Positions 14,641 through 35,730 of a stretch of 64,000 nt of DNA are shown piece after piece (positions within the stretch are counted from its first letter, which is position 1; the number at the start of each line of letters is the position of its first letter). The translations under genes and the position numbers were made by a program. This stretch comes from Polyangiales bacterium (lineage in GTDB: Bacteria > Myxococcota_A > Polyangia > Polyangiales > JADJQN01). The stretch is from positions 1 to 64,000 of the forward strand of contig CAXNJO010000001.1 in NCBI GenBank assembly GCA_964202905.1. The letters are read 5' to 3'. The notes under the pieces are model-generated. The model saw nothing but the letters and a program-made list of their open reading frames with translations. It made no database searches and was not told the origin of the DNA.

Positions 14641-15693
14641 CTATCCGTGCAGGCCGCGGCGGAGCGCGTCGATCGCGCGGGCGCGCTGCGTGTGCGCCGC
14701 GGGGATCACACCGGACATCGTGAAGAAGCCGTGCACGAGCGTGGGCGCCTCGACGCGCGTGACCGGGACGCCCGCGCTTTGCAGGCGATCGGCGTAGGCG
14801 GCGCCCTCGTCGCGGAGCGGATCGAAGCCCGCCGTGACCACGCAGGCGGGCGGGAGATCGGTGTGGCGCTCGGCGAAGAGCGGCGACGCGTGGGGATGCG
14901 GTGCGCTGGGCCGCGTCGGGCACGTAGTGATCGAGAAACCACGTCCATCGTGGCCGCGTCGAGGAAGGGGCCCGCGGCGTGCTCGCGGTGCGAGGGCAGC
15001 GCGCGGGTCATGTCGGTCGCGGGATAGACGAGCCACTGGAAGATGGGGCGCGGGCCGCCCTCGTCGCGCGCGCGGAGCGCGGTCACCGCCGCGAGGTTGC
15101 CGCCCGCGCTGTCCCCGCCGACCGCGACGCGCGTGAAGTCGCCGCCGAGCGAAGCGGCGTTCGCAGAGACCCAGCGGAATGCGGCGAGCGCGTCGTCCGC
15201 CGCAGCCGGGAAACCGATGCTCGGGCGCGAGTCGGTAATCGACCGAGACGACCACGCAGCGCGCCTCGACGGCGACGGTGCGACAGCCCGCGTCGTACAC
15301 GGCCGGACTGCCGACGACGAAGCCGCCGCCGTGGAAGAACACGAGCACGGGCAGCACGCCCATCGCAGCAGGCGGCGTGTAGATGCGCGCCGGGAGCGGA
15401 CCCGCGGCGCCGTCGATCATGCGCTCTTCGACGCGCACGCCGGGCGGTGGCGCGGCCTCGACGACGGCGACGCCGAGCGCGAGCTCCGCACGTGCGGCCG
15501 CGACGGAAATCTCCGAGTATCCGGGGCGCTGCGCGAGCTTCTGCAGGCGGGCGAGCAGCTGCGCGTGCGGGTCGAGCTCGGCGGCGAGGGCGTTGCGCTG
15601 CGGAGGACCTGCGAGCGCGCGCACGACGCTCGGGGGCAGCGAGAGCAGGGCGCGCACCGCGCGCGCCTGCGTGCGTTCGACGAAGGAGGCCAT
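14641..15693 (-). CDS. HSL-family alpha/beta hydrolase (esterase/lipase) with two compensating frameshifts
   Basis: HGGGF; GDSAGG in an alternate frame between ~15210 and ~14940; FDPLRDEG and HGF. Confidence 0.85.
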
Positions 15694-15759
15694 GGTGCGC
15701 GAGTATGCCTTCGCTGCGGCGCGTTGTTGTTGGGGAAGCGCGTGGGTCGCGGAGCGCGC

Positions 15760-16660
15760 TCAGCGGCGCGCGAGGCGCACGCGGCGGCGAATCACGACGG
15801 CCGTGAGGTTCAGCGAGAACGTCAGCGCGAGCAGCACGAGCACCGTGCCGTGCAGCGCGGGCTGCGCGGCGTCGACGTCGGGCGACTGCGTCGCGAGCAC
15901 GTAGACGTGGTGCCCGAGGTGCATGAACATGTCGCGCGCATCCGTCGGCAACCACGGCAGGTACGTCGCCGCGCCGATGAACATGATCGGTGCGACCTCG
16001 CCCGCACCGCGGCTCACCGCGAGGATGACGCCCGTGAGGATCCCGCCCGTCGCGTGCGGCAAGACCACGCGCGCGACCGTCTGCAGCCGCGTCGCGCCGA
16101 GCGCCGCGGAGGCCTCGCGCAGCTCCTTCGGCACGGCGCGGAGCGACTCCTCCGTCGCGACGATGACGACGGGCATCGTGAGCAGCGCGAGGGTGAGCGA
16201 CGACCAGAGGATCGCCGGCTTGCCCCACAGCGGCGCCGCGTTGCCGAGCGCGGCGTCGAGCCCGCGGCCCACGAAAAGCACGAAAAAACCGAGCCCGAAG
16301 AGCCCGAACACGATCGACGGGACGCCCGCGAGGCTCAGCACCGCGCCCCGCACCAGACCCGCGAGCCGCGAGCGCGGCGGCGCGTACTCGTGCAGGTACA
16401 CGGCCGTCGCGACACCGGCGGGCACCACGGCCACGGTCATGAGCAGCGTGAGCAGCACCGTGCCGTAGATCGCGGGGAAAATGCCGCCCGCAGAGACGTC
16501 GGTGCGCGGCGCGCTGCCGAGGAACTCGGGCGAGATCGTCGCCGCGCCGAACCACGCAATGCGCCCGACGAGCAGCGTCGAGCAGCGCGACGACGAACAG
16601 CGTCGCGAGGCCGGTCGCGGCGGCGAGCACGCGATCGCGTGGGGTCGGCGGGGACTGCAC
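15760..16660 (-). CDS. pstA: Phosphate ABC transporter permease PstA (frameshift near 16580)
   Basis: GGIFPAIYGT, LAGVPSIVFGLFG, REASAALGATRLQT, SRGAGEVAP. Confidence 0.85.
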
Positions 16661-16781
16661 GGCCCCGGCTGTGTAGCAGGCGCGCGCCCGCCCCGCGGGG
16701 CTGGCACACGATCGACACGCGACGCGGCGCCGACCTGCGCGCGAGGGCCCCGAGAGGCCCGGAATCCGGACTTTCGAGGGC

Positions 16782-17267
16782 CTACGTGCCCAGCAGGAGC
16801 CGCACGGAGCTCGCCCGCGCCTCCCGCGCGTCGGCCTCTTCTGCGGGCGTCCACGACATGTCCGCCTCGAGGCGGAACGCACCGCCCCACGGATCCGGCG
16901 GTGATCCGCCCCAGTCCTCCGGGGACAGCAGCGAGAAGTACGGCGAGCCGCTCGCGGGGCGGTAGAGGTTGTAGGTCTGGCCGACGCGCTTGCGGAACTG
17001 ACACATCGCGCGGTGCAGCTCAGCGTCGCGCTGCGTCGCGAGGAGCACGCCGCGGGCCTGCTCCTGCAGCGCGCGGATCTGGTCCGCGATGAGGGCGAGC
17101 TTGCCCGTCGCGACCGAGCCGAGCACGGCGTCCGCGCGCTGGATCTCGCGCGCGACGTCGACGAGGTCGTGCGCGGGCGCGAGCCGGCTCATCGGATACG
17201 GCGAGGTCCGCGCGGGCCCCTCGTGGCGGGCGCCGTCGTGACGCGTGCTCGGATCGTCGTGGCTCAT
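16782..17267 (-). CDS. DUF2452-like protein
   Basis: SPYPMSRLAP, KLALIADQIRALQEQA, YFSLLSPEDW, FRLEADMSWT. Confidence 0.7.
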   Translation of the reverse strand: MSHDDPSTRHDGARHEGPARTSPYPMSRLAPAHDLVDVAREIQRADAVLGSVATGKLALIADQIRALQEQARGVLLATQRDAELHRAMCQFRKRVGQTYNLYRPASGSPYFSLLSPEDWGGSPPDPWGGAFRLEADMSWTPAEEADAREARASSVRLLLGT

Positions 17268-17359: not shown

Positions 17360-19360
<2,001 letters not shown>

Positions 19361-19426
19361 GGCCGCGCCAGGGTCTCCAGCCCCAGAACCTTTACCCGGC
19401 GCCCGGATGCGTCTATCTAACGGCGT

Positions 19427-20605
19427 ATGCGCACGACCGTATCCCGCGTCCTCGTCCTGCTCGCCCTCGCCGGTTCCCTCGTTCTCCCCGCGGCGCTCGG
19501 CGCCTGCGGCTCGAAGTCCGAGCCCGCGCCCGCGGCACTTTCGGCGCCCGCCGCGCCTGCCCCGGAGCCGCTCGTCGCGCTCACGCCCCCGACGAACCTC
19601 GACGCCGCGAAGGTCGCGCTCGGCCGCAAGCTCTTCCACGACCGCATCCTCTCGGGCGACGGCACGCTGAGCTGCGCGACCTGCCACTCCCTCGAGATGG
19701 GCGGCGCCGAGCACCGCGCGACCTCCGAGGGCATCCGCGGACAGGTGGGCCCGATCAACTCGCCGACGGTGCTCAACGCGGCGCTGAATTTCGTTCAATT
19801 CTGGGACGGCCGCGCGCGGACCCTCGAGGAGCAGGCCGCCGGCCCCATCGGGAACCCCGGCGAGATGGGGTCGAGCATCGAGGCCGCGCTCACGGCGTTG
19901 AAGGCGCGCCCCGACTACGTGCAGGCCTTCGCCGCGTCGTATCCGGAGGGCATCACGCAAACGAGCCTCACGCACGCGATCGCGGAGTACGAGCGCTCGC
20001 TCATCACGCCCTCGCCCTTCGATCGCTTCCTCCGCGGTGAGCAGGGCGCGATCAGCGAGCAGGCGCGGCGCGGCTACGACACGTTCAAGTCGGTCGGCTG
20101 CCCCGCGTGCCACACGGGCCAGAACGTCGGCGGCACGATGTACCAGAAGATGGGCCTCGTGCGGAACTACTTCCAACTCCGCGGCACGCCGCTCACCGAG
20201 GCCGACAACGGCCGCTTCAACGTCACGCATCAGGAGAGCGACCGGCACATGTTCAAGGTGCCGACGCTCCGCAACGTCGCCCTCACCGCGCCCTACTTCC
20301 ACGACGGCTCGCGCCAGACGCTCGCGGAGGCCGTGAAGATCATGGGCCAGGTGCAGCTCGGCCGGGAGCTCACGGACGCGCAGGTCGCGGACATCGTCGC
20401 GTTCCTCGGGTCGCTCACCGGCGAGATCCCCGCGGCCTCGCGCCCGACGCCCGAAGAGCTCGCGCCCGCCGCGCCCGCGGCCCCGAACGGCGAAGGCTCG
20501 ATCTTGCAGGGCGAGCACACCGGCGGCGCGCGCAGCGCCAACGATCATGCCGGCCCGCGCTGGCCGGGTCTCGGCCTCGCGGGCATGGGCACCGCGGGCT
20601 CGTGA
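19427..20605 (+). CDS. Di-heme cytochrome c peroxidase (CcP/MauG family), lipoprotein
   Basis: Lipobox LGA-C; CATCH and CPACH; QFWDGRA; FKVPTLRNVALTAPYFHDG. Confidence 0.9.
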   Translation: MRTTVSRVLVLLALAGSLVLPAALGACGSKSEPAPAALSAPAAPAPEPLVALTPPTNLDAAKVALGRKLFHDRILSGDGTLSCATCHSLEMGGAEHRATSEGIRGQVGPINSPTVLNAALNFVQFWDGRARTLEEQAAGPIGNPGEMGSSIEAALTALKARPDYVQAFAASYPEGITQTSLTHAIAEYERSLITPSPFDRFLRGEQGAISEQARRGYDTFKSVGCPACHTGQNVGGTMYQKMGLVRNYFQLRGTPLTEADNGRFNVTHQESDRHMFKVPTLRNVALTAPYFHDGSRQTLAEAVKIMGQVQLGRELTDAQVADIVAFLGSLTGEIPAASRPTPEELAPAAPAAPNGEGSILQGEHTGGARSANDHAGPRWPGLGLAGMGTAGS

Positions 20606-20650
20606 CGCGACGCGCCCCCGGCGCGCGTTGCTAGACTCGCCGGCACCCCC

Positions 20651-22489
20651 ATGCGCAGCGAGCCGGTCCAGACGCATCTCCGCTGCAATCAGGCCTGCAC
20701 CTACTGCACCGCGCGCAGCGCGAAGGACGACGCCGCGTGGGTGCAGGCGCCAGCGGTCGCGCAGCGGATGGCCGCAGCGATCGCCCGCGGCGCGAGGGAG
20801 ATCGTGCTCAGCGGCGGCGAACCGACGATGCGCCGTGATCTCGCCGGGCTCGTTCGCGAGGCGCGGCATGCCGGCGCGGAGCGCGTCACGCTCGAGACGA
20901 ACGCGACGCTGATCGACGACGCGCGCGCGGCGGAGCTCGTGTCCGCGGGACTCGACCGCGCGCTCGTGAATCTCGCGGGCGCCGGCCCGTGGCTCGACGC
21001 GGTGACGCGCGACGCGGGCGGCTTCGAGGCGACGCTGCGCGGCCTCGATGCGCTGATCGCTGCGGGGCTGCGCGTCGACGTGCAGGCCGCGCTCGTGCGC
21101 TCGACCGCGGCGCGCCTGCCGGAACTCCCGTCGTGGCTGCGGCGGCGCTTCGGCAGCGGCGTGCGGACGCTCTTCCTCGTCGTGCCGGTGCGCGCGCCGG
21201 ACGCGCGCGAGCTGCTCGACTTCGATACGGCGGGCGGCGTGATCCGCGACGTCGAGGCGCGGGCCCGCGCGGCGGCGCTGCCGCTGAAGCTCGCGCCGGG
21301 CAGCGGACCGCCACCGTGCGTGCACGGGCAGGAGCCGCGCGTCGCGCACCTCTACGCGATGACGCCGGGCGCGGCGCTGCGCGAAGACCACGTGCACCTC
21401 GCGCCGTGCGAGGGCTGCGCGGTGCGCGATCGCTGTGCCGGCGTCGCGCGCGAGGTCGTGCAGCGCTTCGGGGCGCCGCAGATGACGCCCGTGGCGACCG
21501 ACCGCGCGCGGCGCCGCCTCTCGCTGATCGCCACCGTCGAGGAGCAGGTCGCGCGCGAGCTGGTGCAGCCGAGCCGCTACCACGACGCGCGCCGCGGCGT
21601 GATCGACGAGGACCTCATCCGCGTGGTCTTCCAGTGCAACCAGGCGTGCCGTTTCTGCTTCGTCTCGACGCACCTGCCCGGCGCCGACGACGCGACGATC
21701 GAGGCCGCGATCCGCACGGCCGCCGAGCGCGGCCACAAGATCAACCTCACGGGTGGCGAGCCGACGCTGCACCCGGGGCTCGCGGGGTTCGTGCGGCTCG
21801 CGAAGTCCTTGTCGACGCTGCCGGTGGTGCTGCAGACCAACGCGGTCCGCCTCGCCGACGCGGCGCGCACGCACGAGCTCGCCGAGGCCGGACTCGACGA
21901 GGTCTTCGTGTCGTTGCACGGCGCGAGCGCGGCCGTCTCCGACGCCGTCACGGGCGCGCCGGGCACGTTCGAGAAGACCGTCCTCGGCATCGACCAGCTC
22001 GTCGCAACTGGGTTGCACGTACAACTGAACTTCGTGATCTGTCAGGCGAACCTGCACGAGCTGCCGGCGTGGGTCGCGCTGCTCGCGGAGCGCTGGCCGC
22101 GCGCGTTCGCGAACATCTCGTTCGTCGCGCCCTCGACCGACGTCGTGCCGCGCGAGCGCGCGCTCGTGCCGCCCTACACGGACGTCCTCCCCATGCTCGC
22201 GGAGGCCGTCGCGCAGGCCGAGGCGCGCGGGCTCGAGCTCGGCGGCTTCGAGTCGATGTGCGGGGTGCCGCTCTGTCTGGTGCCGCGCGCGCTCGATCGC
22301 TACTTCGCGCTCGGCGAGCTCGATGCCGGCGTCGACGCGGGAGAGTTCGTGAAACCGCCCGCATGCACCGCCTGCGCGTTGTCGAGCCGCTGCCACGGGG
22401 TCCGCCGCGGCTACGTCGCGCTGCACGGCGACGGCGAGCTCGCGCCGGTCGACTCGCTTGACCCACGACGGTCCGCTCCCTTAGGCTGA
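20651..22489 (+). CDS. Tandem double radical SAM protein (HxsC-like C-terminal Cys motifs)
   Basis: CNQACTYC with SGGEPT and CNQACRFC with TGGEPT; each half ends in CxxCx5CxG (CEGCAVRDRCAG, CTACALSSRCHG). Confidence 0.9.
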   Translation: MRSEPVQTHLRCNQACTYCTARSAKDDAAWVQAPAVAQRMAAAIARGAREIVLSGGEPTMRRDLAGLVREARHAGAERVTLETNATLIDDARAAELVSAGLDRALVNLAGAGPWLDAVTRDAGGFEATLRGLDALIAAGLRVDVQAALVRSTAARLPELPSWLRRRFGSGVRTLFLVVPVRAPDARELLDFDTAGGVIRDVEARARAAALPLKLAPGSGPPPCVHGQEPRVAHLYAMTPGAALREDHVHLAPCEGCAVRDRCAGVAREVVQRFGAPQMTPVATDRARRRLSLIATVEEQVARELVQPSRYHDARRGVIDEDLIRVVFQCNQACRFCFVSTHLPGADDATIEAAIRTAAERGHKINLTGGEPTLHPGLAGFVRLAKSLSTLPVVLQTNAVRLADAARTHELAEAGLDEVFVSLHGASAAVSDAVTGAPGTFEKTVLGIDQLVATGLHVQLNFVICQANLHELPAWVALLAERWPRAFANISFVAPSTDVVPRERALVPPYTDVLPMLAEAVAQAEARGLELGGFESMCGVPLCLVPRALDRYFALGELDAGVDAGEFVKPPACTACALSSRCHGVRRGYVALHGDGELAPVDSLDPRRSAPLG

Positions 22490-22527
22490 CTTGCTGCGCG
22501 CCCGGCGGCCGCACACGAGGAGAGCGC

Positions 22528-23088
22528 ATGTCGACCGAGAAGAACCGAGACGCAGGAGCAGGCGCGAGCGGGATGGTGAGCACCTCGCGGCGGGTTTTCC
22601 TGGCCGCAGCCGGGGCGGCGTCGTGCGTCGTGTTCACGGGAGGCGTCGCGCGCGCGCTCGCCCCGCAGTCCGAGGGCGTTCGCCGCCAGCGCGTCGGGGC
22701 GAAGCCCGCCACGGCCCTGCACGCGCTCACCGCGGCGCTGCCGGTCGGCACGCCGCTGCACACCGCCACCGTCGCGGCCGTGAACCCGGTGAAGTTCGGC
22801 GCCGTCGCCGTCCTGATGCGGCGCCCCGACGGCAGCGCCTTCCAGCTCGATGTGCTCCAGCGCGCCGAGCACGACGGGTCGATCGCGCAGTCGGCGCGTT
22901 GCAGCGTGTTCGCCGTCAACGGCGGCACGGGCAGCTCGGCGACGGCCGAGCCCGATGGGCTCTCGGCGATGGCGCTCGCCCAGGCGCTCGTCGCCGCGGA
23001 GGTCGCGGGGGTCTCGGCCCTGCCGCTGCTCACGCACGCGGAGCGCGCGCGGCGTCACCCGATGGGCTCGTACCGCGTTCACGGCTGA
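22528..23088 (+). CDS. Hypothetical Tat-exported protein
   Basis: RBS gaggag; SRRVFLAAAGAA...ARA twin-arginine signal. Confidence 0.7.
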   Translation: MSTEKNRDAGAGASGMVSTSRRVFLAAAGAASCVVFTGGVARALAPQSEGVRRQRVGAKPATALHALTAALPVGTPLHTATVAAVNPVKFGAVAVLMRRPDGSAFQLDVLQRAEHDGSIAQSARCSVFAVNGGTGSSATAEPDGLSAMALAQALVAAEVAGVSALPLLTHAERARRHPMGSYRVHG

Positions 23089-23181
23089 GCAGCGCGCCCT
23101 CGGCCGGGCAGCGCGTTCACGGCCGACCACAGCGTTCAAGACTGAGCACCGCGCCAGCGTGTCGCGTACGGGGCCGCGGAC

Positions 23182-24525
23182 TCAGCGCGGGGGCCGCGGA
23201 GCGCGGCGCGGCCGCTCGTCGACGAGGGGCAGGAGCCCCTTGCGACCGTCGAGGAACAGCGTGCCGTCGTCGCCGCGCTGTACGGCAGCGACGACCCGCT
23301 CGAGGAGCCCGCGCACCTGCTCGCGCGACGGATCGCCTTCGAGCCCCGCGTAGAAGAGATTGAACGAGCGGGTGCGCGCGAGCGCCTGCTTCGCGGGGTC
23401 ACGCGCCTCGAGCACGACGTCGAGCCGTGCACCCGCGCCAAGCTCGAAGCCGTAGCGGACCTGCGTACGCGAGACCTGCACACCCGCGAGTCGAGCCTCC
23501 GCGTCCTCGACGCCCGCGAGCAGACGCCCCCAGACCCCGTGTCGATCGCGCGCCGGGTCCCCGTCGTCGACGGTCGCCTGCTCCGCCGGCGCATCGCGCT
23601 CCTTCCACGGCGTGACGCGCGGCTCGGGGCGGAGGCGTGTCTCCTCCCAGCCGAAGCGATCGATGTACGCGTGCGAGAGACCGAGACAGGAGTCGGAGTG
23701 CTCGCACACCGCCTCGAACAAACAGGAGAACTTCGGGAAGGCATCCCAGAACGACTCGACGATGATCACATCGGGTTGCGCGTTGTCGACGAGCGCGGCG
23801 CGCGTCCCGAGCAGACAGTGAGGCACGTATTTGACGAGCGCCGCGACGCCGAGTGCGTCGGCGCGGTCGAGCGCGGCGAGCAGCGCGGGCGCGACCTCGG
23901 ACACGGGGGCGAGCAGCGCATTCGCCTCGGCATGGTCGGCCATCGGCAGATAGCCCCAGAGCTCCGCGCTCGTGACGCCGTGCGCGGCCGCGAGCTCCAT
24001 GATCGCCGCCAGCTCCTGCACGTTGAGCGCCGTGATCACCGTATTGGAGAGGAGCGTGAAGCCGAGAGCGCGCGCGTTGTCGAGACCGCGGACCAGCTCG
24101 TCGAAACTCCCCGGTCGTTGCGTGATTCCGTCGTGCGTGCGGGCGTCGGCGCCATGGACGGAGACGAAGAGTTCGTCGACCCCCGCCTCGCGAAGCGCAC
24201 GGGCGTACGCGGCGTCGGCGAGACGGCGGCCATTCGTCTGGACACGGACGTGGGCGAAAGACTCGGATTCGCGGGCGACGCGCACGAAGTCGAAGAGACT
24301 CTTCTCGAGCGTGACTTCGCCCCCGGTGAAGAGGACACGCTCGTATTTGCGGCTCACCCGATTTTCGGCGGCGGTCGCGCGAAAGCGCTCGAGCGGTACG
24401 CCCCGATATCGGTTCATCCCCTCTTGGACGATGCAGAAACGACAAGCACTGTTGCAGTGGAAATCCACAGTCACCGCGAGGTCACGGAAACGGGTCGGAT
24501 GAAACGCGCCGCGGGTCGTCTCCAT
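23182..24525 (-). CDS. Radical SAM protein with C-terminal extension
   Basis: CNSACRFC, FTGGEVT, VQTNGR, VPHCLL, CLFEAVCEHSDSCLG. Confidence 0.9.
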   Translation of the reverse strand: METTRGAFHPTRFRDLAVTVDFHCNSACRFCIVQEGMNRYRGVPLERFRATAAENRVSRKYERVLFTGGEVTLEKSLFDFVRVARESESFAHVRVQTNGRRLADAAYARALREAGVDELFVSVHGADARTHDGITQRPGSFDELVRGLDNARALGFTLLSNTVITALNVQELAAIMELAAAHGVTSAELWGYLPMADHAEANALLAPVSEVAPALLAALDRADALGVAALVKYVPHCLLGTRAALVDNAQPDVIIVESFWDAFPKFSCLFEAVCEHSDSCLGLSHAYIDRFGWEETRLRPEPRVTPWKERDAPAEQATVDDGDPARDRHGVWGRLLAGVEDAEARLAGVQVSRTQVRYGFELGAGARLDVVLEARDPAKQALARTRSFNLFYAGLEGDPSREQVRGLLERVVAAVQRGDDGTLFLDGRKGLLPLVDERPRRAPRPPR

Positions 24526-24528
24526 CGC

Positions 24529-25419
24529 TCAGACCGTCCCGTAGAAGCTGGTTTTCGGCCGGGCGAGACGGCCATCCGGGCCGCTGCGATAGTCGATCCC
24601 GACGTCGAAACGCAGGTGTTCGAAGCGTCCACGACAGCGCTCGGCGAAGCTCACGAAATCCCTCGGATACTCGTAGGCGCGCAGAAACCAGAGCCACTGA
24701 TCGACGTCGATTCCGGAGAAATACAGCGCATCACACGTGCGCTTGCGCGCCACGCAGACGCGTCGACAGCTGAAGAGTTGCGGCCGCAACAGCTCGGCGA
24801 GCGAGACCCTGTCGAAATCCACGAACGTGCTGCTGCGGATTCGCGCGACCACTTCGTGAACATCCGTTTTCGGAGGCAGGAAGACGTAGTGATTCTCAAG
24901 CTCCATCCGCTCGCCCTGCACCGTGTAGGAGCGGCCGGCATGACCGCGCGGCTCGGCGAGATAGAGGTTGAGCCCGTCGACCCGACCGCGAGCGGCGGTA
25001 TCCACGCGCAAATCGTAACTGAACATGAAATAGGGCACTGACTCGCGAACGGTTGCGTCGATGCGATAGAAGGGAGCGACGGTTTCGCCGACACGGGTCG
25101 CGGTGACGGCCGCGTCACGCTTCTGGGGATCGTAGAAATAGAGTTCCCAAAACAGCTGACTGCCGTCGTATTTCACGCCCCACACCGTCGCATCGCGACC
25201 GCAGGCGTGTTGCAGCGCGCGGACGGATTCGGCGACCCGAGGCTCCGCGCCCGCGACGCGGAAGGACTGCCAGAGGAGCGACTCCGAGCGCAGACCGCCG
25301 CGCGGAGAGCGGCGAGGCTCGTAGGGCTCGAGGCAATAGTCGAAATGACGATCGTTGGGAGTCGTCTCGACGAGAACCTCGCCGTCGGACTCCGAAGCGG
25401 TGGTGAAGAGCGATGTCAC
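24529..25419 (-). CDS. Hypothetical protein, possible ABBA prenyltransferase (PT-barrel) fold
   Basis: GTG start overlaps the upstream stop (GTGA); aromatic beta-strand motifs WGVK..WELYFYD, FSYDL..LNLYL, DALYFSG, VGIDYR...TSFY. Confidence 0.65.
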   Translation of the reverse strand: MTSLFTTASESDGEVLVETTPNDRHFDYCLEPYEPRRSPRGGLRSESLLWQSFRVAGAEPRVAESVRALQHACGRDATVWGVKYDGSQLFWELYFYDPQKRDAAVTATRVGETVAPFYRIDATVRESVPYFMFSYDLRVDTAARGRVDGLNLYLAEPRGHAGRSYTVQGERMELENHYVFLPPKTDVHEVVARIRSSTFVDFDRVSLAELLRPQLFSCRRVCVARKRTCDALYFSGIDVDQWLWFLRAYEYPRDFVSFAERCRGRFEHLRFDVGIDYRSGPDGRLARPKTSFYGTV

Positions 25420-26450
25420 AGGCGACTCCAGGGGGGCGGCGGCGCACCCTCGGCCAGCACCTCGGCGACGGGCCTGCGCGCGGCTTCCGCGGCCTCGACC
25501 CGCGCGAGCGCCCAGGCGAAGAGCCCGTCGAGGAGCGCCGACTCGGCGTGTCCTTCGGCGACGCGATACGAAAGCGCGTACGCGGCCGTGCGCCGATAGC
25601 TGCGTGTCGCGGGCTCCGCGGGCTCGACGAAGAGACGCAACATCACACCGGGCGCGCGGAAGAGCGCATCCCCCTCGAGCGCGTGGAGTGCCGGCCCCGC
25701 CCCCGACGGCTTGACGTAGACCGTGTGCACGAGCGGGCCGCCGAGCGAGACGCCCACGGAGCGCGGCACGCCGGGCAGGAAGGGCAGCTCCGCCGACAGG
25801 GCGCCGGCGTCGAACCACGGGAGCTCGCGCGCGAGGGCCGACCAGCCCGACGCACGCACCGCGACGAAAAAGGCGCGTGGAGCGGCGGGGCCTTCGCCCT
25901 CCGGCACGTCGAAGGACACGACCGCGCCTGCGCTCGCGCCGGCGCGCACGGCAAGCCGCGCGAGCTCGCACGCGCGCGGCCCGAACGGGGCTGCCGCCGT
26001 CTCCGCATCACTCGCCTGGACGTAGCGCTTGCGCTCGACACGCCCATCCGCGAAGAGGTTGACGCCGACGACGTGCGCGACGGGCTCGCGCACGCATCCG
26101 AGGATGTGCTCCTCCGCGTCGGCGCGCGCCCCGATTGTATGATCGGAGGCGTTGGCGTACGCCTTCACGACCGTGCGCCCGGGTTCGCCGACGTCCCAAC
26201 CGACGATCAGCGGCAGGGACGCGCGCTCGACGCTCTCGAGCACGCGCCGACCGAGCGGACCGAGCGCGACGCCGTGCGTGGCGGCGAGCCGGAAGAGATG
26301 CTCCGGCATCGCCCGCTCGATCATCATCCGCCCGCCGCGCCACGTGGTGCCGTGGACGCGCACGCTCGCCTCGAAGGAGGCGAGATCGACGCCGTCACGC
26401 AGGGCCCACGGCTCCGAATACAGGGACGGGCTCACGGCGGTCGCCTGCAT
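25416..26450 (-). CDS. Hypothetical protein, possible ABBA prenyltransferase fold plus C-terminal module
   Basis: IVGWDV...VVKAYAN, VGVNL...RKRYVQ, VGVSL...HTVYVKP. Confidence 0.65.
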   Translation of the reverse strand: MQATAVSPSLYSEPWALRDGVDLASFEASVRVHGTTWRGGRMMIERAMPEHLFRLAATHGVALGPLGRRVLESVERASLPLIVGWDVGEPGRTVVKAYANASDHTIGARADAEEHILGCVREPVAHVVGVNLFADGRVERKRYVQASDAETAAAPFGPRACELARLAVRAGASAGAVVSFDVPEGEGPAAPRAFFVAVRASGWSALARELPWFDAGALSAELPFLPGVPRSVGVSLGGPLVHTVYVKPSGAGPALHALEGDALFRAPGVMLRLFVEPAEPATRSYRRTAAYALSYRVAEGHAESALLDGLFAWALARVEAAEAARRPVAEVLAEGAPPPPWSRL

Positions 26451-26545
26451 GCGTCGTCAGCGTACGACCCCCTGCGCGTCGCATGCAAGGTCGCGTGACG
26501 CCGCCGTGCTGGCCGAGCCCTCCGCGCGCGGGCATCCTGCGGCTC

Positions 26546-27364
26546 GTGCAGTCGCTGCCGGACATCGCGTTCGACGAGCTCTCGGCCTCCGATCGACTCC
26601 TCGATCGGATCCTCGACGGTCAGGAGCTGGGGATCGTCGTGCGCAACGTGGTCTCGCCCGACGTCGTCGCGGCGTTCCGCGAGCGGCTCCTCCACGACCC
26701 GCTCGCCCCGATGCGCATGCCCTCGGCGCACTTCGACGGCTTCACGCTCGGTCGCGTCCTCGTCGTCGAGCCTCCGCCGCTCGACGCCTATTTCGAAGAC
26801 GCAGCGCGGCACCACGCGTTTCTCGCGACGCTCGCGCCGGAGGGGCTCGACGTCGCGGCCGCCCTGCGAGGGCTGCTGACGAAGATGGCCGGCGAGGCGC
26901 GCGTCGAGGTCCCGCGAGACGCGGCCGGGAGGGCCCACGCGCCGGCCACCGGACGCATCCTCACCCCGGGCGGGCGCATTCACGTGCACTGCGAGAACGA
27001 GACGCTCCGTTTCCCGTCCATGCGCGACCTCGCCGCGCAGCTCGCCCCGGAGTCCCAGGCGAGTTTCTACCTGCCGCTCGCGCTCCCCGAAGGCGGCGGC
27101 GTGCTCCACGTCCACCGCGTCCGGCACGGCGAGGCCTCCGGCGAGCCCGTGCAGCGCCTCGCCCGGTCGGGTGAGGAGATCCGCGCCTATCTCGCGCAAC
27201 ACGAGGGATTCGTCGCGAATCCGGGGCTCGGTGACGTGCTGGTCTTCGACGCAGGGCGCCACCACCACCACGTGACGGCCGTCGAGGGGACACGTGACCG
27301 GATCACCTACGGCGGCTTCGTCGCACGGTCCCGCGGCCGCGATCACTGGCTCGCGTGGGGCTGA
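26546..27364 (+). CDS. 2OG-Fe(II) oxygenase-like protein
   Basis: IHVHCE (HxE), EGGGVLHV, GDVLVFDAGRHHHHVTAVEGTRDRITYGGF (distal His and Arg). Confidence 0.75.
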   Translation: MQSLPDIAFDELSASDRLLDRILDGQELGIVVRNVVSPDVVAAFRERLLHDPLAPMRMPSAHFDGFTLGRVLVVEPPPLDAYFEDAARHHAFLATLAPEGLDVAAALRGLLTKMAGEARVEVPRDAAGRAHAPATGRILTPGGRIHVHCENETLRFPSMRDLAAQLAPESQASFYLPLALPEGGGVLHVHRVRHGEASGEPVQRLARSGEEIRAYLAQHEGFVANPGLGDVLVFDAGRHHHHVTAVEGTRDRITYGGFVARSRGRDHWLAWG

Positions 27365-27373
27365 GATCCGTCG

Positions 27374-28162
27374 ATGCCTTCCCTCTCGTACACGCCGGTG
27401 AGACGGGTTCACCGACCCTCGCGCGAGGCCTTCGCCGCGCTCGCGCGCGCGGGTGAGCCGCTCGTCCTCGAGGGCGCGCTCGATGACTGGCCGGCCGTCG
27501 GTGGTTGGTCGCCGGAGGCGCTGCGCGCGCGGATCGGCGCGCAGCGCATGCAGACATACGTCGTCGAGAACCGCAGCGTGGTGCTCGATCCGAAGCGGGG
27601 ATTTCGCGTCGAGACGCTGAGCGTCGCGGACTACGTCGAGCGCGTGCTCGCGGGGGGGGCGCCGACCCACTATCTGCGCGCGCCCCTCGAGGCGTTTCCC
27701 TCCGCGCTGCGCGAGGAGATCGGCGTGCCCGAGTACTGCGCGAACGCCCTCTACGTGCGGCGAAACGTGTGGTTCAGCGCGCCGGACACCGTGAGCCGAC
27801 TGCACTTCGATCTGCTGCACAACCTGATCGCGCAGCTCCACGGAGAGAAGGAGTTCCTCTTCTTCCCCTTCCGCGAGCGGCGGAATCTCTACCCGCACAG
27901 TCTGTGGTCGGCGATGCCGCAGTTCAGCCACGTGGACCTCGAAACCCCGGATTTTCAGGCCTTTCCGCGGCTCGCTGCCGCGAAGGGCCAGCGATGCGTC
28001 CTGCGCGAGGGCGACCTGCTCTACCTGCCGTCGCGCGTCTGGCACCACGCGCGCTCGGTCGGGCCGAGCATCACCGTGAACTTCTGGTGGCCACCGCTCG
28101 CGATGCTGCCGCTCACGCTGCTCTCCGACGCGTACAAGCGTGCGCGTGGCCTGCGCGTGTGA
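27374..28162 (+). CDS. JmjC/cupin-like hydroxylase
   Basis: DWPAVGGWS, SRLHFD, QLHGEKEF, EGDLLYLPSRVWHHARS. Confidence 0.88.
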   Translation: MPSLSYTPVRRVHRPSREAFAALARAGEPLVLEGALDDWPAVGGWSPEALRARIGAQRMQTYVVENRSVVLDPKRGFRVETLSVADYVERVLAGGAPTHYLRAPLEAFPSALREEIGVPEYCANALYVRRNVWFSAPDTVSRLHFDLLHNLIAQLHGEKEFLFFPFRERRNLYPHSLWSAMPQFSHVDLETPDFQAFPRLAAAKGQRCVLREGDLLYLPSRVWHHARSVGPSITVNFWWPPLAMLPLTLLSDAYKRARGLRV

Positions 28163-28201
28163 GCCCTCGCGCCCGGGGCCGCTCGGTGTAGGCTCGGTAG
28201 G

Positions 28202-29269
28202 ATGTCGTCCTCGCTGCTCTCTCCCGCCTCGCTCCTGCGCGCAGGCGCGCGCGCGCTCCCGATCGCGAAGCTGGGCGTGCGCCGCGCGCTGTCCCGGAAG
28301 AGCCCGTTTCAGGTCACGTTCTCGCTGACGAACCGCTGCAACTTCCGCTGCGACTACTGCGACATCCCGCTCCAACACCGCGAGGAGATGACGACGGCCG
28401 AGTGGACCGCGGCGATCGACGAGTTCGTCGCCGGGGGGCTCGGCCGCGCGAGCCTGATCGGCGGGGAGCCGCTGCTCCGCAAGGACGCCGGCGCGATCAT
28501 CCGCCACCTGCGCGCGCGCGGCATCCACGTCGCGATGAACACCAACGGCTGGCTCGTGCGCGACCGGATCGAGGACGTCGCGCTGCTCGACGTCGTCTGC
28601 GTCACGCTCGACGGCCCGCGCGAGGTGCACGACGCGCAGCGGCACAAGGGTTCGTACGACCGCGTGCTCGACGCGCTCGAGGTGCTGCGCTCGCGCGGCG
28701 TGCCCGTCGTGACGATGACCGTCATCACGCCGAAGGGCGCCGAGAACGTGGGCCACGTCCTCGAGGTCGCGCGCGACTTCGGCCACAAGGCCTTCTTCCA
28801 GCTCGAGCACGACGCGCGCTGCGACGTCGACGCGCCCATCGCGCCGCTCCTGAGCGACGAGCGCATCACGGAGATCGCGCGGGATCTGCGCGAGCGGCGG
28901 CGGCGCGGCGAACCCGTCGGCAACTCGGACTCGGTGCTCGCGCTGCAGATGCGCGACGGCCGGCGCCTCGGCGGCGATTGTTCGCACTGCTACGCGGGCC
29001 GCTACTTCGCGTACGTGCTCTCGGACGGGACCGTCGCGCCCTGCCTGCTCACGCAGTGGCAGCAGGAGGCGGGCAACGGCCGCAAGCTCGGCTTCCTGCG
29101 CGCGTTCGAGGAGATGAACCCGGCGCAGGGCCCCGGCTGCGCGTGCGTGCCAATCCACGAGGTGAACGCGATCCTCTCCCTCGACGCGGCCGTCCTCTTC
29201 GATGCGCTCGAGATCGCGCTCGCGTCGGCGCGGTCCCGCCTCGGCGCGGCCGTACTCCCCGCAGGCTGA
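28202..29269 (+). CDS. Radical SAM protein with twitch/SPASM-like domain
   Basis: CNFRCDYC, GGEPLLR, NTNG, CYAG...DGTVAPC. Confidence 0.9.
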   Translation: MSSSLLSPASLLRAGARALPIAKLGVRRALSRKSPFQVTFSLTNRCNFRCDYCDIPLQHREEMTTAEWTAAIDEFVAGGLGRASLIGGEPLLRKDAGAIIRHLRARGIHVAMNTNGWLVRDRIEDVALLDVVCVTLDGPREVHDAQRHKGSYDRVLDALEVLRSRGVPVVTMTVITPKGAENVGHVLEVARDFGHKAFFQLEHDARCDVDAPIAPLLSDERITEIARDLRERRRRGEPVGNSDSVLALQMRDGRRLGGDCSHCYAGRYFAYVLSDGTVAPCLLTQWQQEAGNGRKLGFLRAFEEMNPAQGPGCACVPIHEVNAILSLDAAVLFDALEIALASARSRLGAAVLPAG

Positions 29270-29277
29270 ATCGCGAT

Positions 29278-31356
29278 TCAGTGACCGCGTGCGCGGAGGC
29301 GCCCGGCCACGCGGTTCGCCGCCTCGACGAGCACGGCGTCCGGAGGCGAGCCCGCACCGCTCCGCGCGTAGAAGACGTCGAACGCCGCCGAGCGCGCAGG
29401 CGCCGCGAACGGCCGCGCTCCCTGCCGCACGACCTCGACGACGACGCGCACGCCGCCACGCGCGAGCGTGACGCGCGCTGCGGAATCCGCGCGCCCCTCG
29501 ATGCGCGTGACCTGCCAGCCATCGCCGAGCGAAGCGTCCTCGAGCGCGGCGCGGACCTCGGGGTCGGGGGCGCGCCGCGGGTCCGCGTGGCGCCGTTCCG
29601 GGGCGCGTGCAGGGCGCGGCGTGAACACGGCCCCCGGCGGCGCGCTCACGCGCACGAGCGCGAGCACGGGTACGCCCGAGCGCGTCGTGAAGCGCGCCTC
29701 CTCCGTGACGCGCCAGCCGAGCGCGCGCGCGGCGTCCTCGAGCGCGCGGCGGTGGAGCGCGACGCCGGGCTCGTCGATCAGGCCGACGCGGATCGGGACG
29801 ACGAAGCGCAACGGCAGCCGCCCGGGGTCGGCGAGCAGCAGCGCGAAACGCTCGACGAGGCCCTCGCGCAGGCCGAGATCGAGCCGCCGCTGCCCGAGGT
29901 AGGGCTGCCCATCGAGGGTCGAGGCGCCGAAGGCGTCGAGCACGCCGGCGAGGTTGTACGTCGTCGTGATCGCGGGCGCGTCGGGCCGCGCGCGCAGGTG
30001 TGCGACGAGCGCGCGCTCGGCGGTGAGGTTGATCGAGACCGTGGTCGTGTCGCGCAGATCGCCGCGGCGGAACGTGCTCGTGACCGCGCTGGCGACGCCG
30101 ATCGCGATGACGACGATCACCATCCGGTAAGATGGTGAGCGCATCCTGCCGCTCAGGAGTCGGCCCGCCGTGAGGAGGGCGCAGCCGAGCGAGACCGCGT
30201 GCGAGTACGTGACGGGCGCGTAGTTCGCCGCGGGCCGTTGGTCGTAGGCGAGCGTGACGAACACGATGTAGGCGAGCTGGAGCGCCCCACAGGCCGCGGC
30301 GACGGGCGAGTGCGGCCGCCCGGCGATCCTCTGCACGAGCGCGACGAGCGAGTGCGCGAAGGCGAACGTCGACAGCGTGAGAAAGGCCGGGACGAGGCCC
30401 CCGTCACCGCCGTTCGCGAGCGCGAAGTAATAACCAACGTCGCCCGCGTAGAGGAGCGCGTTGCCCACCTCCTCCACGAAGAAACGCGGATGGAGGTGCG
30501 CGGCCATCGTCGCGAGGCGCGCCCCGACCTGCGTCCCGACGCCGCCGTACGGGTCCGCGAGCGCGACGACGAGCAGCGGCGCGATCGGCGCAGCGGCACA
30601 GAGGGCCGCGATCGCGAGCCGCTTCACGCCGGCCGCGCGGAGCGGGCCCCCGCGGTGCAGCGCAGTCGCCACGAGCGGCGCCGCGACGACGAGGCCCTTC
30701 ACGTTCGTCGCGATCGAGAGCCCGACGAGGAGGCCTGCGAGCGCGAGCCGGCGCGCAGAGGGCGGCGTGCGTGGATCGCGCCGTCGCGCGACGACGAGCG
30801 CCGCGAGCGCGACGAAGAGCGAGGGCACGAACTCGTAGTAGACGAGCAGTGAATGACCGACGACGAAGCCCGAGAGCGTCGCGGCGGTCATCGCGCAGGC
30901 CGCCGCCGTGAGGGAATCGGCGACGGCCTCGACGAGCAGGAAGAGCGCGAGGATCGCGAGGGCGCCGATCACGAGGCCGCAGCGGCGCAGCGCGACGGGA
31001 TCGCCCTGGTGAATCGGTCGCAGCAGTTGCAGCGGCCAGTACGCGACGCCACCGATGTACGGCGCGACGAGCACCGGCCAGCGCAGCCCCGCGGCGCAGA
31101 GCGCGGCCGACGGCCGGGTGCGCGCGCGGAGCCACGTCGCCCCCTCGCCGCAGCCGACGTTCAACGGCAGCACGCCGCCACCGTCGTCGTCGACGGGCGC
31201 GAGCTGCGGCACGGACGGCCCCGCGTGTGTCGCGGTCTCCTCGTGCCAGACGGGGAACGTCCCCGCGAGCCACACGCCCTGCACCACGAACGTCCCGATC
31301 GCCACCAGCAGTACGAGCCGCGCCCGCGACGGGGACAGTGTGGGGACGGGCTGCAT
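29278..31356 (-). CDS. Multi-pass membrane protein, GT-C (ArnT/PMT-like) glycosyltransferase candidate
   Basis: WHEE after the first TM, PYIGG, about 10 hydrophobic segments, soluble C-terminal region. Confidence 0.6.
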   Translation of the reverse strand: MQPVPTLSPSRARLVLLVAIGTFVVQGVWLAGTFPVWHEETATHAGPSVPQLAPVDDDGGGVLPLNVGCGEGATWLRARTRPSAALCAAGLRWPVLVAPYIGGVAYWPLQLLRPIHQGDPVALRRCGLVIGALAILALFLLVEAVADSLTAAACAMTAATLSGFVVGHSLLVYYEFVPSLFVALAALVVARRRDPRTPPSARRLALAGLLVGLSIATNVKGLVVAAPLVATALHRGGPLRAAGVKRLAIAALCAAAPIAPLLVVALADPYGGVGTQVGARLATMAAHLHPRFFVEEVGNALLYAGDVGYYFALANGGDGGLVPAFLTLSTFAFAHSLVALVQRIAGRPHSPVAAACGALQLAYIVFVTLAYDQRPAANYAPVTYSHAVSLGCALLTAGRLLSGRMRSPSYRMVIVVIAIGVASAVTSTFRRGDLRDTTTVSINLTAERALVAHLRARPDAPAITTTYNLAGVLDAFGASTLDGQPYLGQRRLDLGLREGLVERFALLLADPGRLPLRFVVPIRVGLIDEPGVALHRRALEDAARALGWRVTEEARFTTRSGVPVLALVRVSAPPGAVFTPRPARAPERRHADPRRAPDPEVRAALEDASLGDGWQVTRIEGRADSAARVTLARGGVRVVVEVVRQGARPFAAPARSAAFDVFYARSGAGSPPDAVLVEAANRVAGRLRARGH

Positions 31357-31395
31357 CGCTTGGCCGGGGCGGCGGACGAGCCTATCATGCCGAGA

Positions 31396-32283
31396 ATGTC
31401 GGCCGATGGAGCGACCGCGGTCGGGGCCGCGCGGCCGAGCCGCAGCGCATCGTGGGCGTGGTGGCGCGGGCTGCGCGTGCGTGACTGGGCGCACTTCGTC
31501 GTGTTGCCGCTCGCCGCGGCGCCGCTCCGTTCGCCCGACGCCGCGGCCGCGATCGGCCTCGCGCGCGGCATGGGCATCGCCGCGCTGCTGCTCGCGTACG
31601 GCTATCTGCTGAACGGCCTCGCCGACCGCGGGCTCGATCGGGACCCGGCGAAGAACCCGTTCTCACAGGCGTCGACGAAGGCCATCGACGCCCTCGCGGC
31701 GCTCGCGTTCGCGCTCGCGCTCGGCGCGCTCGGCCTCGCGGCCGCAGGCGGCCCCGTGCCGGTCGCCGCGGCGTCGACGAGCATCGCCGCGGGCTGGCTC
31801 TACTCGGCGGGCCCGCGGCTCAAGCGGCTCCCCATCGTCGGCACGCTGCTCAACGTCGCGTGCTTCGCCCCGCTTCTCTTCGTCGGCGCGGGCCGCACGC
31901 TGCCCCCTGCGACGGCGCTCCTCACGCTCGCGTTCACGGGCCTGCTGCTCGAAAACCAGCTGCTGCACGAGGCGGCCGATGCCCGCGACGACGCGGCGGC
32001 GCAGGTGCGCACCACCTTCCTCGCGCTCGGCGCACGCGGGGCCGCGGCGCTCGCCGCATTCGCCGGGACGCTCCCCGCGGCGGCGATCGGGCTCGCGTGG
32101 CCCGGCGCGATCGGCGCCTGCGTCGCGGGCGCGACGGCGCTCGTCTTCGTGGTCGTGGTGCCGCGCGCGCTCGCCCGACACGGCGCCGACCCGCGCCGCA
32201 TGGCCCGCGCGCGGCTGCTTCACCGCGCGGCCGGCGTCGCGCTGGGGGCCCTGCTCTTCGCGGTCGCGGGCGGGCGCGGCTGA
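31396..32283 (+). CDS. UbiA-family prenyltransferase
   Basis: Multi-TM; NGLADRGLDR..KNP, YSAGPRLKRLP, HEAADARDD. Confidence 0.8.
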   Translation: MSADGATAVGAARPSRSASWAWWRGLRVRDWAHFVVLPLAAAPLRSPDAAAAIGLARGMGIAALLLAYGYLLNGLADRGLDRDPAKNPFSQASTKAIDALAALAFALALGALGLAAAGGPVPVAAASTSIAAGWLYSAGPRLKRLPIVGTLLNVACFAPLLFVGAGRTLPPATALLTLAFTGLLLENQLLHEAADARDDAAAQVRTTFLALGARGAAALAAFAGTLPAAAIGLAWPGAIGACVAGATALVFVVVVPRALARHGADPRRMARARLLHRAAGVALGALLFAVAGGRG

Positions 32284-32343
32284 GGCCCGCGACGTCGGCT
32301 ACCTCGGCGCGCCGAATGGCTGTACGATCGGGACGCTCGAGAC

Positions 32344-33387
32344 GTGAATCGCTTGGACCCACGCACGAACCCACCCGAAAACCGCACGATCGACGAGCGC
32401 ATCGCCGCGCGGGACGAGCGCGTGCACGTGCTCACCGGCGCGGTCTGCAACAACAACTGCGTCTTCTGCATGGAAGAAGACCGTGACGCCCGCTACGTCA
32501 CGAACAGCGCGACCGACGACGCGACGGTGCGCGCGCTCCTCGCGCAGAAGCGCGGCGCCGAGGAGTTCTGCTTCACCTCCGGCGAGCCGACGACGAACCC
32601 GCGCCTGCCGCACTGGGTGCGCTGGGCGAAGGAGGCGGGCGTCCGCCGCATCAGCGTGATGACCAACGGCCGCGCGCTCTCCTACGAGAAGTACGCGAAG
32701 GCGCTCATCGGCGCGGGGATGAACCGCTTCTACGTGAGCATCCACGGCCACACGGAGAAGCTCCACGAGGGCCTCACGCGCACGCCCGAGAGCTTCGCGC
32801 AGACGGTCGCCGGGCTCGACATGATCACGCGCTTCAAGCGCTACGGGGTCGAGCTCCACACCTCGACCGTGATCACCAAGCGCAACCTCCCGCACATGGC
32901 CGACATCTACCGCTTCCTGCGCGCGCACGGCGTCGATCAGGTCGTCTTCAACGTGATGCAGGCGAACGGCCGCGCCGACACGCACTTCGAGCAGATTTTT
33001 CCGCGCTACACGGAGATCGCCGCCGTCGCGCGCGCGTTCCTCGAGACGCAGTCCGCGATCGAGCCGCAGCCGCGCGCCTTCCTCGTCGACATCCCGCTCT
33101 GCACGACGTTGGGGATCCCCGACTTCAACCGCGGCTACGTCGAGTCCTACGTCCACTACGAGCCGGCCTCCAACGCGGAGAAGTTGCTGCCCGCAGAGCT
33201 GCTCCTCGGGCGCCGCGAAAACCTTGGCGGACGCGAGCTCGTCGCCGTGCGCCGCGCCGACCTCGACGACGTCGCGCGTCAGAAGCGCGCCGAGTGCAGC
33301 GCCTGCCGACACGAGCCCGCGTGCGAGGGCGTGTGGGGGAACTACCTCCGCCGCTTCGGCTGGGACGAGTTCGTCCCCGTGCCCTGA
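32344..33387 (+). CDS. Radical SAM protein (HxsC-like)
   Basis: [40 protein letters not shown]. Confidence 0.9.
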
Positions 33388-33497
33388 GCGCGCTACCCGC
33401 GCGTCACGGCGTCGCGACGCGGAGGCGCGACACGGCCCACGCCCGCTCCGCGGAACGGGATGGCACCCGCCGGAGCACGCGCGTATCCTCCCGCCCC

Positions 33498-35730
<2,233 letters not shown>

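Follow-up and report, generated by a model that had tools for sequence, protein, structure and literature searches.

A detached piece of a myxobacterial type-4 His-Xaa-Ser system with cassettes of predicted prenyltransferases

A 64,000-nucleotide stretch of a Polyangiales bacterium genome (contig CAXNJO010000001.1 of assembly GCA_964202905.1; hereafter the window) contains, at positions 19427-33387, a locus of radical S-adenosylmethionine (SAM) enzymes, oxygenases and prenyltransferase-like proteins, in which we considered twelve genes. The original prediction, made from the sequence, had presented these genes as one cluster and as a candidate for a new system. We find instead that the locus is a detached piece of the catalogued myxobacterial type-4 His-Xaa-Ser system and not a self-contained new one, because HxsC4, HxsA4, HxsB, HxsD and an HxsD-like protein all pass their curated cut-offs in this genome. 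The twelve genes resolve into two core genes, a twin-arginine translocation (Tat)-type helper, two optional cassettes, termed A and B, and a bystander peroxidase; the core HxsA4 system is already catalogued, and the cassettes, with their predicted prenyltransferases, are the part not met with in the papers searched. We consider it somewhat probable that the locus is a satellite of that system, its enzymes likely adding isoprenoid tails and oxidations to the HxsA4 peptide.

HxsC4 in the window and HxsA4 on another contig

The HxsC4 enzyme of the window scored 618.4 bits with model NF038332 against a cut-off of 500, the outcome of a profile comparison that the original prediction had proposed for its HxsC-like enzymes. 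The same model has eleven matches in this genome (G000), of which six lie together in a single block of contig C2; the block also contains HxsA4 (59.3 bits, cut-off 55), HxsB (552.7, cut-off 370), HxsD (55.1, cut-off 50) and the HxsD-like protein (79.3, cut-off 41). All five members of the NCBIfam type-4 set (HxsA4 NF038313, HxsC4 NF038332, HxsD-like NF038315, HxsB TIGR03978 and HxsD TIGR03976) are thus over cut-off, with the difference that HxsC4 here is detached from its precursor, the two lying on different contigs rather than in their usual adjacency. The set has no model matching the tandem radical SAM protein rSAMx2, the radical SAM enzyme rSAM_C, the Tat-signal protein, the proteins unkA and unkB, or the pair of UbiA and a twitch-type radical SAM enzyme, all of which lie in the window.

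The original prediction had seen no obvious precursor peptide. None is found in the window, where a search of 19300-33500 found no free-standing small coding open reading frame (ORF), but the genome-wide search for a His-Xaa-Ser substrate that the prediction proposed located the HxsA4 precursor at G000:C2:695563-695853. It encodes 96 residues with an acidic leader and a core of HCS(HGS)10-W, containing eleven histidines and the invariant C-terminal Trp, and a profile scan of HxsA4 returned only a low-complexity collagen match. Further conserved Hxs pieces lie at C2:124867, C3:122350 and C11:16-17 kb, so that the Hxs system is scattered over at least five places in the genome, of which the window is one. 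The pieces at G000:C3:122350-123108 and C11:15995-17113 are homologues of two more genes of the Hxs clusters of relatives, namely a family without a name, which 13 of 80 loci contain, and another radical SAM enzyme. On C2, hxsB is flanked by two genes for lipoproteins with the MopE motif.

From 182 relatives in species genomes, 80 loci were retained for a study of the neighbourhood of HxsC4; just 45 of these loci are at least 18 kb long, and the named records belong to Myxococcota or Deltaproteobacteria. Within 10 kb of HxsC4, these loci contain HxsB in 44 cases, HxsD in 41 and the HxsD-like protein in 39; an (HGS)n precursor is encoded in 52 and a member of the Tat family in 24. The HxsA4 precursor lies no more than 250 bp upstream of HxsC4 in 45, and 51 of the 52 precursors end in HG[S/R]W-stop. 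Three genomes contain two HxsA4 genes each (G016 on C20, G037 on C50 and C54, G207 on C5 and C1), and in one locus (L090:9581-11005) HxsA4 runs in frame into HxsC4 with no stop, being either a precursor-enzyme fusion or an assembly artefact. Flavin tryptophan halogenases are encoded a few kb from HxsC4 in two loci (L026:17142-18881 and L029:3034-4590, from G024 and G042), a hint that again points to the terminal Trp as a site of tailoring.

Co-occurrence was counted in 61 relatives and in a sample of 251 genomes across the phylum. HxsC4 was over cut-off in 16 of the 61 relatives; rSAMx2 orthologues (E<=1e-89) occurred in 11 and unkA in 6, every one of them HxsC4-positive, twitch matches in 10, all HxsA4-positive, and homologues of the glycosyltransferase-like (GT-C-like) membrane protein in 3. 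Against a base rate of 84 of 251 phylum genomes with an HxsA4 match, unkA was found in 17, 16 of them with HxsA4, and the UbiA subfamily in 16, 15 of them with HxsA4; Fisher tests gave p ~1e-7, a value overstated since kin genomes are not independent. Within a single family of 18 genomes, the 3 unkA genomes were all among the 5 with HxsA4. The genes for rSAMx2, the Tat protein and the two cassettes are shown to co-occur with HxsA4. The di-haem peroxidase, which the original prediction had listed as adjacent, does not: its close homologues occur in 42 of the 61 relatives, many without HxsA4 or HxsC4, and none is placed beside either gene, and because they are unlinked to hxs genes we regard the peroxidase as a bystander. 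A role as a MauG/MbnH-like partner was rejected, the score with TIGR03981, a model of Hxs-associated MauG-like proteins, being 105 against 340 bits and the gene being unlinked in relatives.

In several genomes the cassettes adjoin the core itself: cassette A in G045 and G207, cassette B in G049, G032 and G042. The rSAM_C-unkA pair adjoins HxsD-HxsB-HxsA4-HxsC4 in G045, the gene order is HxsA4-HxsC4-UbiA-twitch in G049 and G032, and in G207 (L240:9576-15831) HxsA4 is separated from HxsC4 by unkA, a fatty-acid desaturase, a polyprenyl synthase and a different UbiA, the last two being placed between unkA and HxsC4. Both cassettes occur together in 3 of 30 genomes, about the expectation under independence among the 84 HxsA4 genomes, which fits independent gain or loss; mutual exclusion of the two is accordingly not claimed. 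The exact arrangement of the locus was met again in just one close relative.

Of the two near-core genes, rSAMx2 encodes two CxxxCxxC motifs and two C-terminal Cys motifs, and its best NCBIfam scores, 140 bits with HxsC4 and 130 with HxsC, are both below cut-off. The canonical HxsC model TIGR03977, applied to the window enzymes only, gave 129.5, 75.4 and 81 bits against a cut-off of 267.9. The Tat protein has no Pfam or NCBIfam match, an Atlas search with it returned nothing, and one of three relatives passes TIGR01409; its N-terminus SRRVFL and the twin-Arg motifs that recur among relatives agree with the Tat substrate originally proposed.

Two optional cassettes with prenyltransferase-like enzymes

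Cassette A consists of rSAM_C, unkA, unkB and one or more 2-oxoglutarate (2OG) oxygenases, and is optional. The original prediction had listed unkA and unkB as two aromatic-rich proteins of no known kind, and indeed neither matches a relevant Pfam or NCBIfam family, PDB sequence searches with them gave nothing useful, and the ABBA Pfam models matched none of 118 unkA members. What it had missed is that both are predicted, from structural models, to be ABBA prenyltransferase barrels, ten-stranded and antiparallel, of no known sequence family. The AlphaFold2 model of unkA, from a family of 283 relatives, has a predicted local distance difference test score (pLDDT) of 93; all Foldseek matches listed for it are ABBA prenyltransferases, the top one being the histidine geranyltransferase LimF (E 8.5e-7, TM 0.51), and in VIA the top 19 rows are all ABBA enzymes, with Z from 13.3 (root-mean-square deviation (rmsd) 4.0, 248 aligned) to 8.7 and the next fold at 6.7. 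An independent lead from the Atlas points to PF11468, on 11% of one cluster. Among cultured myxobacteria, Sandaracinus amylolyticus has a recorded unkA (P0081). The invariant residues K83, R163, K226 and R227 and six Tyr lie on or near strands of the unkA model.

The model of unkB (122 representatives; pLDDT 89) matches PriB in Foldseek with E 2.7e-9 and PatF in VIA with Z 15.9 (rmsd 3.5, 229 aligned), followed by further ABBA enzymes, 19 rows in all, down to 12.7, and by the next fold at 7.7. Invariant in 61 unkB sequences are E27, R41, K96, Y98, K141, Y143 and Y245; the residues described for AuraA, in like order, are E104, R118, K205, Y207, K278, Y280 and Y354 (PMC11696170). Residues 254-344 of unkB (window 25416-25690) form a small C-terminal domain outside the barrel, with weak fold matches. 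Homology between unkA and unkB is not claimed, the profile comparison giving 0.3% probability.

Both proteins resemble the cyanobactin F-family (LimF, PagF, PatF, KgpF, DciF), which prenylates His, Trp and other residues of ribosomal peptides, in a predicted ABBA barrel of ~300 residues. They differ from it in showing 11-16% identity in structural alignments and no sequence-level match, in having no cyanobactin genes seen nearby, and in having a fixed radical SAM partner and paired, sometimes fused barrels. With the DMATS-type enzymes (PriB, TleC, CymD, AuraA, FunA), which mostly act on small molecules, they share the fold, and unkB shares in addition the pattern Glu-x13-Arg, Lys-x-Tyr, Lys-x-Tyr, Tyr, but the barrel is shorter (~250 residues in unkB, where the separate C-terminal domain follows). 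Prenylation of His and Trp in ribosomal peptides by enzymes of the ABBA fold is described in PMC11696170, PMC13290415 and PMC12715784.

The radical SAM partner of this cassette, rSAM_C, has C24/C28/C31 and C237/C268/C274/C280 invariant in 29 sequences and, in 53 of 67 unkA loci, is no farther than 1.7 kb from unkA, 11 of the 14 misses being contigs of at most 4.3 kb. Fusions join rSAM_C to unkA (L225), unkB to unkA (P0223, P0091) and a B12-radical SAM protein to unkB (P0262), and WelO5-like genes flank unkB-unkA-rSAM_C in L201, L202 and L209. Cyanobacterial WelO5/AmbO5 enzymes, too, work beside ABBA enzymes. The WelO5-like enzyme of the window shares a Pfam family and a PDB match with these hapalindole-type halogenases but has Glu where the halogenase has Gly: its H-C-E aligns with H-V-G of WelO5, and the best PDB chain has H-V-D there. 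Since the metal triad is H-C-E and not H-x-G/A, a halogenase was rejected and a hydroxylase is predicted; the JmjC enzyme, whose H-F-D...H aligned with JMJD5 (E 1.5e-32), is likewise a predicted hydroxylase.

Cassette B, likewise optional, pairs UbiA with the twitch radical SAM enzyme, and some instances include GT-C-like or JmjC genes. The distance from the twitch gene to the UbiA gene is at most 1.5 kb in 15 of 15 loci, which are short and contain a GT-C-like gene in three cases and a JmjC and a WelO5-like gene in one each; JmjC genes lie beside twitch or UbiA genes in G016, G042 and G143. UbiA scored 51.3 bits with PF01040 against a cut-off of 34.2, and its Asp-rich motifs N-x-x-x-D-R-x-x-D and H-E-x-x-D-x-x-x-D align with PDB 4tq3, the sole match of the family profile to the PDB (E 1.3e-15), while a PDB sequence search with the single protein gave nothing useful. 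PRK12875 was matched by 15 of 19 UbiA members, and the DPPR-synthase models (PRK12324) by 2-3 of 19, weakly. The twitch profile has SkfB as its best PDB match (E 7e-32), followed by BlsE and PqqE, an order compatible with a peptide as well as with a sugar substrate. The GT-C-like membrane protein of the original prediction has ~8 hydrophobic segments and a PMT_2 score below cut-off, 18.7 bits (15.8-21 over three homologues) against 26.1; it has no PDB match. In G016 (L161:6980-9109), a peptide oxidase of the MbnB/TglH/ChrH type, in fusion with a zinc dehydrogenase, is encoded between two JmjC genes and two twitch enzymes.

A possible route to a lipid-anchored peptide, and its rivals

We rate a little above even the proposal that HxsA4 is prenylated at its invariant C-terminal Trp, its histidines or both, giving a lipid-anchored envelope peptide; a prenylated, membrane-linked product, as originally suggested, is likewise the likely reading. 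In such a route, HxsB and the two HxsD-type proteins would engage the conserved leader, and HxsC-type enzymes including HxsC4 and rSAMx2 would rework the His-Gly-Ser repeats, by analogy with the HXS system of Escherichia coli, in which cleavage of HxsA requires HxsB, HxsC and HxsD and a +8 Da change maps to the His-x-Ser repeat (PMC13128918). Where cassette A is present, unkB, with its DMATS-like Glu/Arg/Lys/Tyr pattern, may prenylate the invariant C-terminal Trp, unkA may perform a second prenylation, possibly on His, and rSAM_C and the WelO5-like enzyme may oxidise or cyclise the product. Where cassette B is present, UbiA would carry out the prenylation at the membrane, the twitch enzyme and JmjC would be its partners in tailoring, and the GT-C-like protein might add a lipid-carried sugar outside. 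The Tat protein could then carry or bind the product in the envelope, and the outcome would be an envelope peptide, rich in histidine and anchored by lipid, with a decoration that varies by lineage.

Several observations weigh against this proposal. Within 10 kb of HxsC4, the 80 loci contain no unkA, unkB, UbiA, JmjC or GT-C-like gene and one WelO5-like gene; the cassettes occur in a minority of HxsA4 genomes (A in 16 of 84, B in 15 of 84), and HxsA4 has no match in one of the unkA genomes (G214) or in one of the UbiA genomes (G083). The close relative that keeps the gene order of the window (L207) has cassette A inverted and partly deleted. In VIA, fungal and bacterial indole enzymes (Z 13.3) stand above the cyanobactin representatives (10.3), so that the top match of unkA to LimF is not evidence of histidine specificity; the invariant cysteines C29, C218 and C222 of unkA are not explained by an ordinary ABBA prenyltransferase role; and the parallel between the unkB invariants and AuraA, which holds in order and in the Glu-to-Arg spacing of 14, is a match of patterns and not a superposition. 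Cassette A, moreover, has a second home. A metagenome scan gave 46 unkA loci, and in a quick, midpoint-rooted tree of 49 rows, from which fragments of <230 residues and the duplicate L157 were excluded and from which no direction of transfer is claimed, a well-supported (starred) branch of 15 sequences comes from loci of another type, which combine unkA and rSAM_C with another partner gene and with genes for an O-methyltransferase, SapC, HlyD, a SecA-like protein, type I secretion and giant RTX-repeat LEPR-XLL proteins. Among 20 such loci (197 kb, the loci only and not whole genomes), no His-x-Ser repeat ORF was found, and cassette A is therefore likely able to work without HxsA4, as a portable unit, its substrate in myxobacteria being one that we infer from linkage alone.

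One cluster of this SapC type is named from Methylorubrum extorquens. Beside unkA in six of these loci (L217, L219, L222, L228, L232, L236) lies a partner family of 270-380 residues without a name; it has ExSxR and KLY motifs in register with unkB and is possibly a third ABBA-fold family; homology of unkB to this partner is not claimed, the profile comparison giving 3% probability. Passages of PMC2938197 treat the neighbourhoods of JmjC, tryptophan halogenase and SapC genes as clusters predicted to serve tailoring and make no mention of unkA- or rSAM_C-type genes.

This second home lends weight to a less probable but credible alternative, in which the cassettes do have a link to the HxsA4 system but their substrates are different ones. 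Cassette A would then build a prenylated, hydroxylated indole or imidazole group, or attach it, either on a free derivative of an amino acid or on secreted surface proteins, these being the LEPR-XLL giants in proteobacteria and the MopE-motif lipoproteins, rich in cysteine, in myxobacteria. WelO5 and DMATS-type enzymes act on small molecules, and relatives of cassette A occur with small-molecule tailoring genes (Rieske oxygenase, O-methyltransferase, tryptophan halogenase, PhyH), both of which fit such a role, as do the SapC/LEPR-XLL context free of a His-x-Ser peptide and the two lipoproteins beside hxsB on C2. However, unkA is nearly confined to HxsA4 genomes in the phylum sample (16 of 17), the cassette stands inside a precursor operon in G207, and one query found no SapC homologue in this genome. 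That cassette B makes a membrane lipid or a lipid-linked sugar donor, and is merely co-inherited with the peptide system or supplies it with a glycan, we consider improbable. UbiA is closest to an archaeal-type prenyltransferase (4tq3, PRK12875), the twitch relatives include the sugar-nucleoside enzyme BlsE, and the Hxs regions of G045 and G016 include genes for a GT2 enzyme, an epimerase, an aminotransferase and a nucleotidyltransferase, whereas the scarce and weak DPPR-synthase matches of the UbiA members, the peptide maturase SkfB as best match of the twitch profile, the position of UbiA-twitch directly after HxsA4-HxsC4 in G049 and G032, and the GT-C-like gene in just three of the short UbiA loci all speak against it. 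A self-contained pathway independent of HxsA4, or a chance gathering of genes, is very improbable and largely refuted by the co-occurrence counts: the window does lack a precursor, its genes are tightly spaced, and one close relative has the same order, but HxsC4 is over cut-off, all tested genes bar the peroxidase track HxsA4 or HxsC4, and the full gene set never recurs as one cluster in distant genomes.

Returning to the HxsA4 peptide as the favoured substrate, a more far-reaching proposal can be made tentatively, and we think it rather unlikely to hold in full. unkA and unkB would be two undescribed ABBA families that pair with a dedicated radical SAM enzyme in a portable prenylate-then-radical-cyclise cassette, lipidating the His-Gly-Ser polymer and terminal Trp in myxobacteria and modifying type-I-secreted LEPR-XLL giants in proteobacteria such as M. 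extorquens, and UbiA together with the twitch enzyme would represent another solution, bound to the membrane, which, if true, would make a UbiA enzyme a peptide prenyltransferase. The SapC/LEPR-XLL home puts the question of cassette A within reach in a host that is harmless and genetically tractable.

An anti-phage function of the HxsA4 system is doubtful. It shares HxsB, HxsD, HxsC-type enzymes and a His-x-Ser repeat substrate with the anti-phage HXS system of E. coli, which has four genes in the fixed arrangement HxsD-HxsB-HxsC-HxsA as well as an HxsA with a signal peptide and a peptidoglycan-binding domain (PMC13128918). By contrast, HxsA4 here has 96 residues, no peptidoglycan-binding domain and, by eye, no signal peptide, the gene order differs, and there are eleven HxsC4-like matches, at least five loci and three prenyltransferase-like genes. 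Because the parts of HxsA for export and wall binding are missing from HxsA4, and the genes of the system are scattered and widespread, the system has the look of envelope housekeeping rather than of anti-phage defence. PADLOC 2.0, whose library is older than the HXS paper, returned generic viperin-model matches alone.

HxsA4 is matched in one third of the genomes sampled from the phylum (84 of 251), but a paper using the term was not found in the literature searched, which covered neither supplements nor subscription journals; nor were the ABBA assignment, the two prenyltransferase-radical SAM cassettes, their tie to HxsA4 or the LEPR-XLL home found there. The main texts of two surveys of Myxococcota biosynthetic gene clusters (PMC13445942, PMC12766979) contain no Hxs or radical SAM terms. 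The locus offers HxsA4 its first concrete chemistry open to testing, with three prenyltransferase-like enzymes on one side and, on the other, a substrate that has eleven histidines and ends in an invariant Trp, and the two ABBA-fold families, invisible to Pfam and NCBIfam, could extend the tools for peptide lipidation.

Gene inventory and assembly quality

All twelve genes named in the original prediction were found (Table 1), and their intergenic gaps of -4 to 95 bp agree with the tight coupling described there. The JmjC protein, the 2OG-Fe(II) oxygenase, UbiA and the di-haem peroxidase are each confirmed by a Pfam match, and, in line with the reported lack of nonribosomal peptide or polyketide synthases, no carrier-protein or ketosynthase motif was found in the window. 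Inspection of the Cys motifs likewise bore out five radical SAM domains with CxxxCxxC motifs across four genes, four of them with HxsC-type ends and one of twitch type. The ends P-x-C ... C-x2/5-C-x5-C-x-G are found in both domains of rSAMx2, in rSAM_C, with the variant C-x5-C-x5-C-x-G, and in HxsC4; the fifth domain, of the twitch enzyme, has one short C-terminal Cys cluster instead.

Table 1. The twelve genes at positions 19427-33387 of the window.
Gene product	Positions	Strand	Remarks
Di-haem cytochrome c peroxidase	19427..20605	+	PF03150 194 bits; bystander
rSAMx2, tandem two-domain HxsC-type radical SAM protein	20651..22489	+	Near-core of HxsA4 system
Tat-signal protein, no known family	22528..23088	+	Near-core gene
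rSAM_C, HxsC-type radical SAM enzyme	23182..24525	-	Cassette A
unkA, predicted ABBA prenyltransferase barrel	24529..25419	-	Cassette A; family without Pfam model
unkB, second predicted ABBA barrel with ~90-residue C-terminal domain	25416..26450	-	Cassette A
WelO5-like 2OG-Fe(II) enzyme	26546..27364	+	PF22814 159 bits; start uncertain, possibly from 26474
JmjC (Cupin_8) hydroxylase (predicted), JMJD5-like	27374..28162	+	PF13621 142 bits
Twitch-type radical SAM enzyme	28202..29269	+	Cassette B; no NCBIfam cut-off reached
GT-C-like multi-pass membrane protein	29278..31350	-	PMT_2 below cut-off; start uncertain, open frame reaches 31494
UbiA-family membrane prenyltransferase	31387..32283	+	PF01040 51 bits; cassette B
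HxsC4 radical SAM enzyme	32344..33387	+	NF038332 618.4 bits; core gene

Contigs of the DNA sequencing runs cover the region piecewise, with no single spanning record, and no RNA run containing it was listed. In the kbl gene (window 33499-34696), one extra base at 33682 causes a frameshift that is absent from the contigs of two runs, and a close relative has an intact gene; the frameshift is likely an assembly error. A fusion of B12-like and HxsC-type radical SAM proteins on C2 (G000:C2:690002-692417; L038 6003-8418), 755-778 residues long in relatives, is in pieces here, probably from assembly indels. At window 14641-17004, a lipase/esterase-like and a phosphate-permease-like gene, named by eye, look frameshifted, consistent with assembly indels as well.

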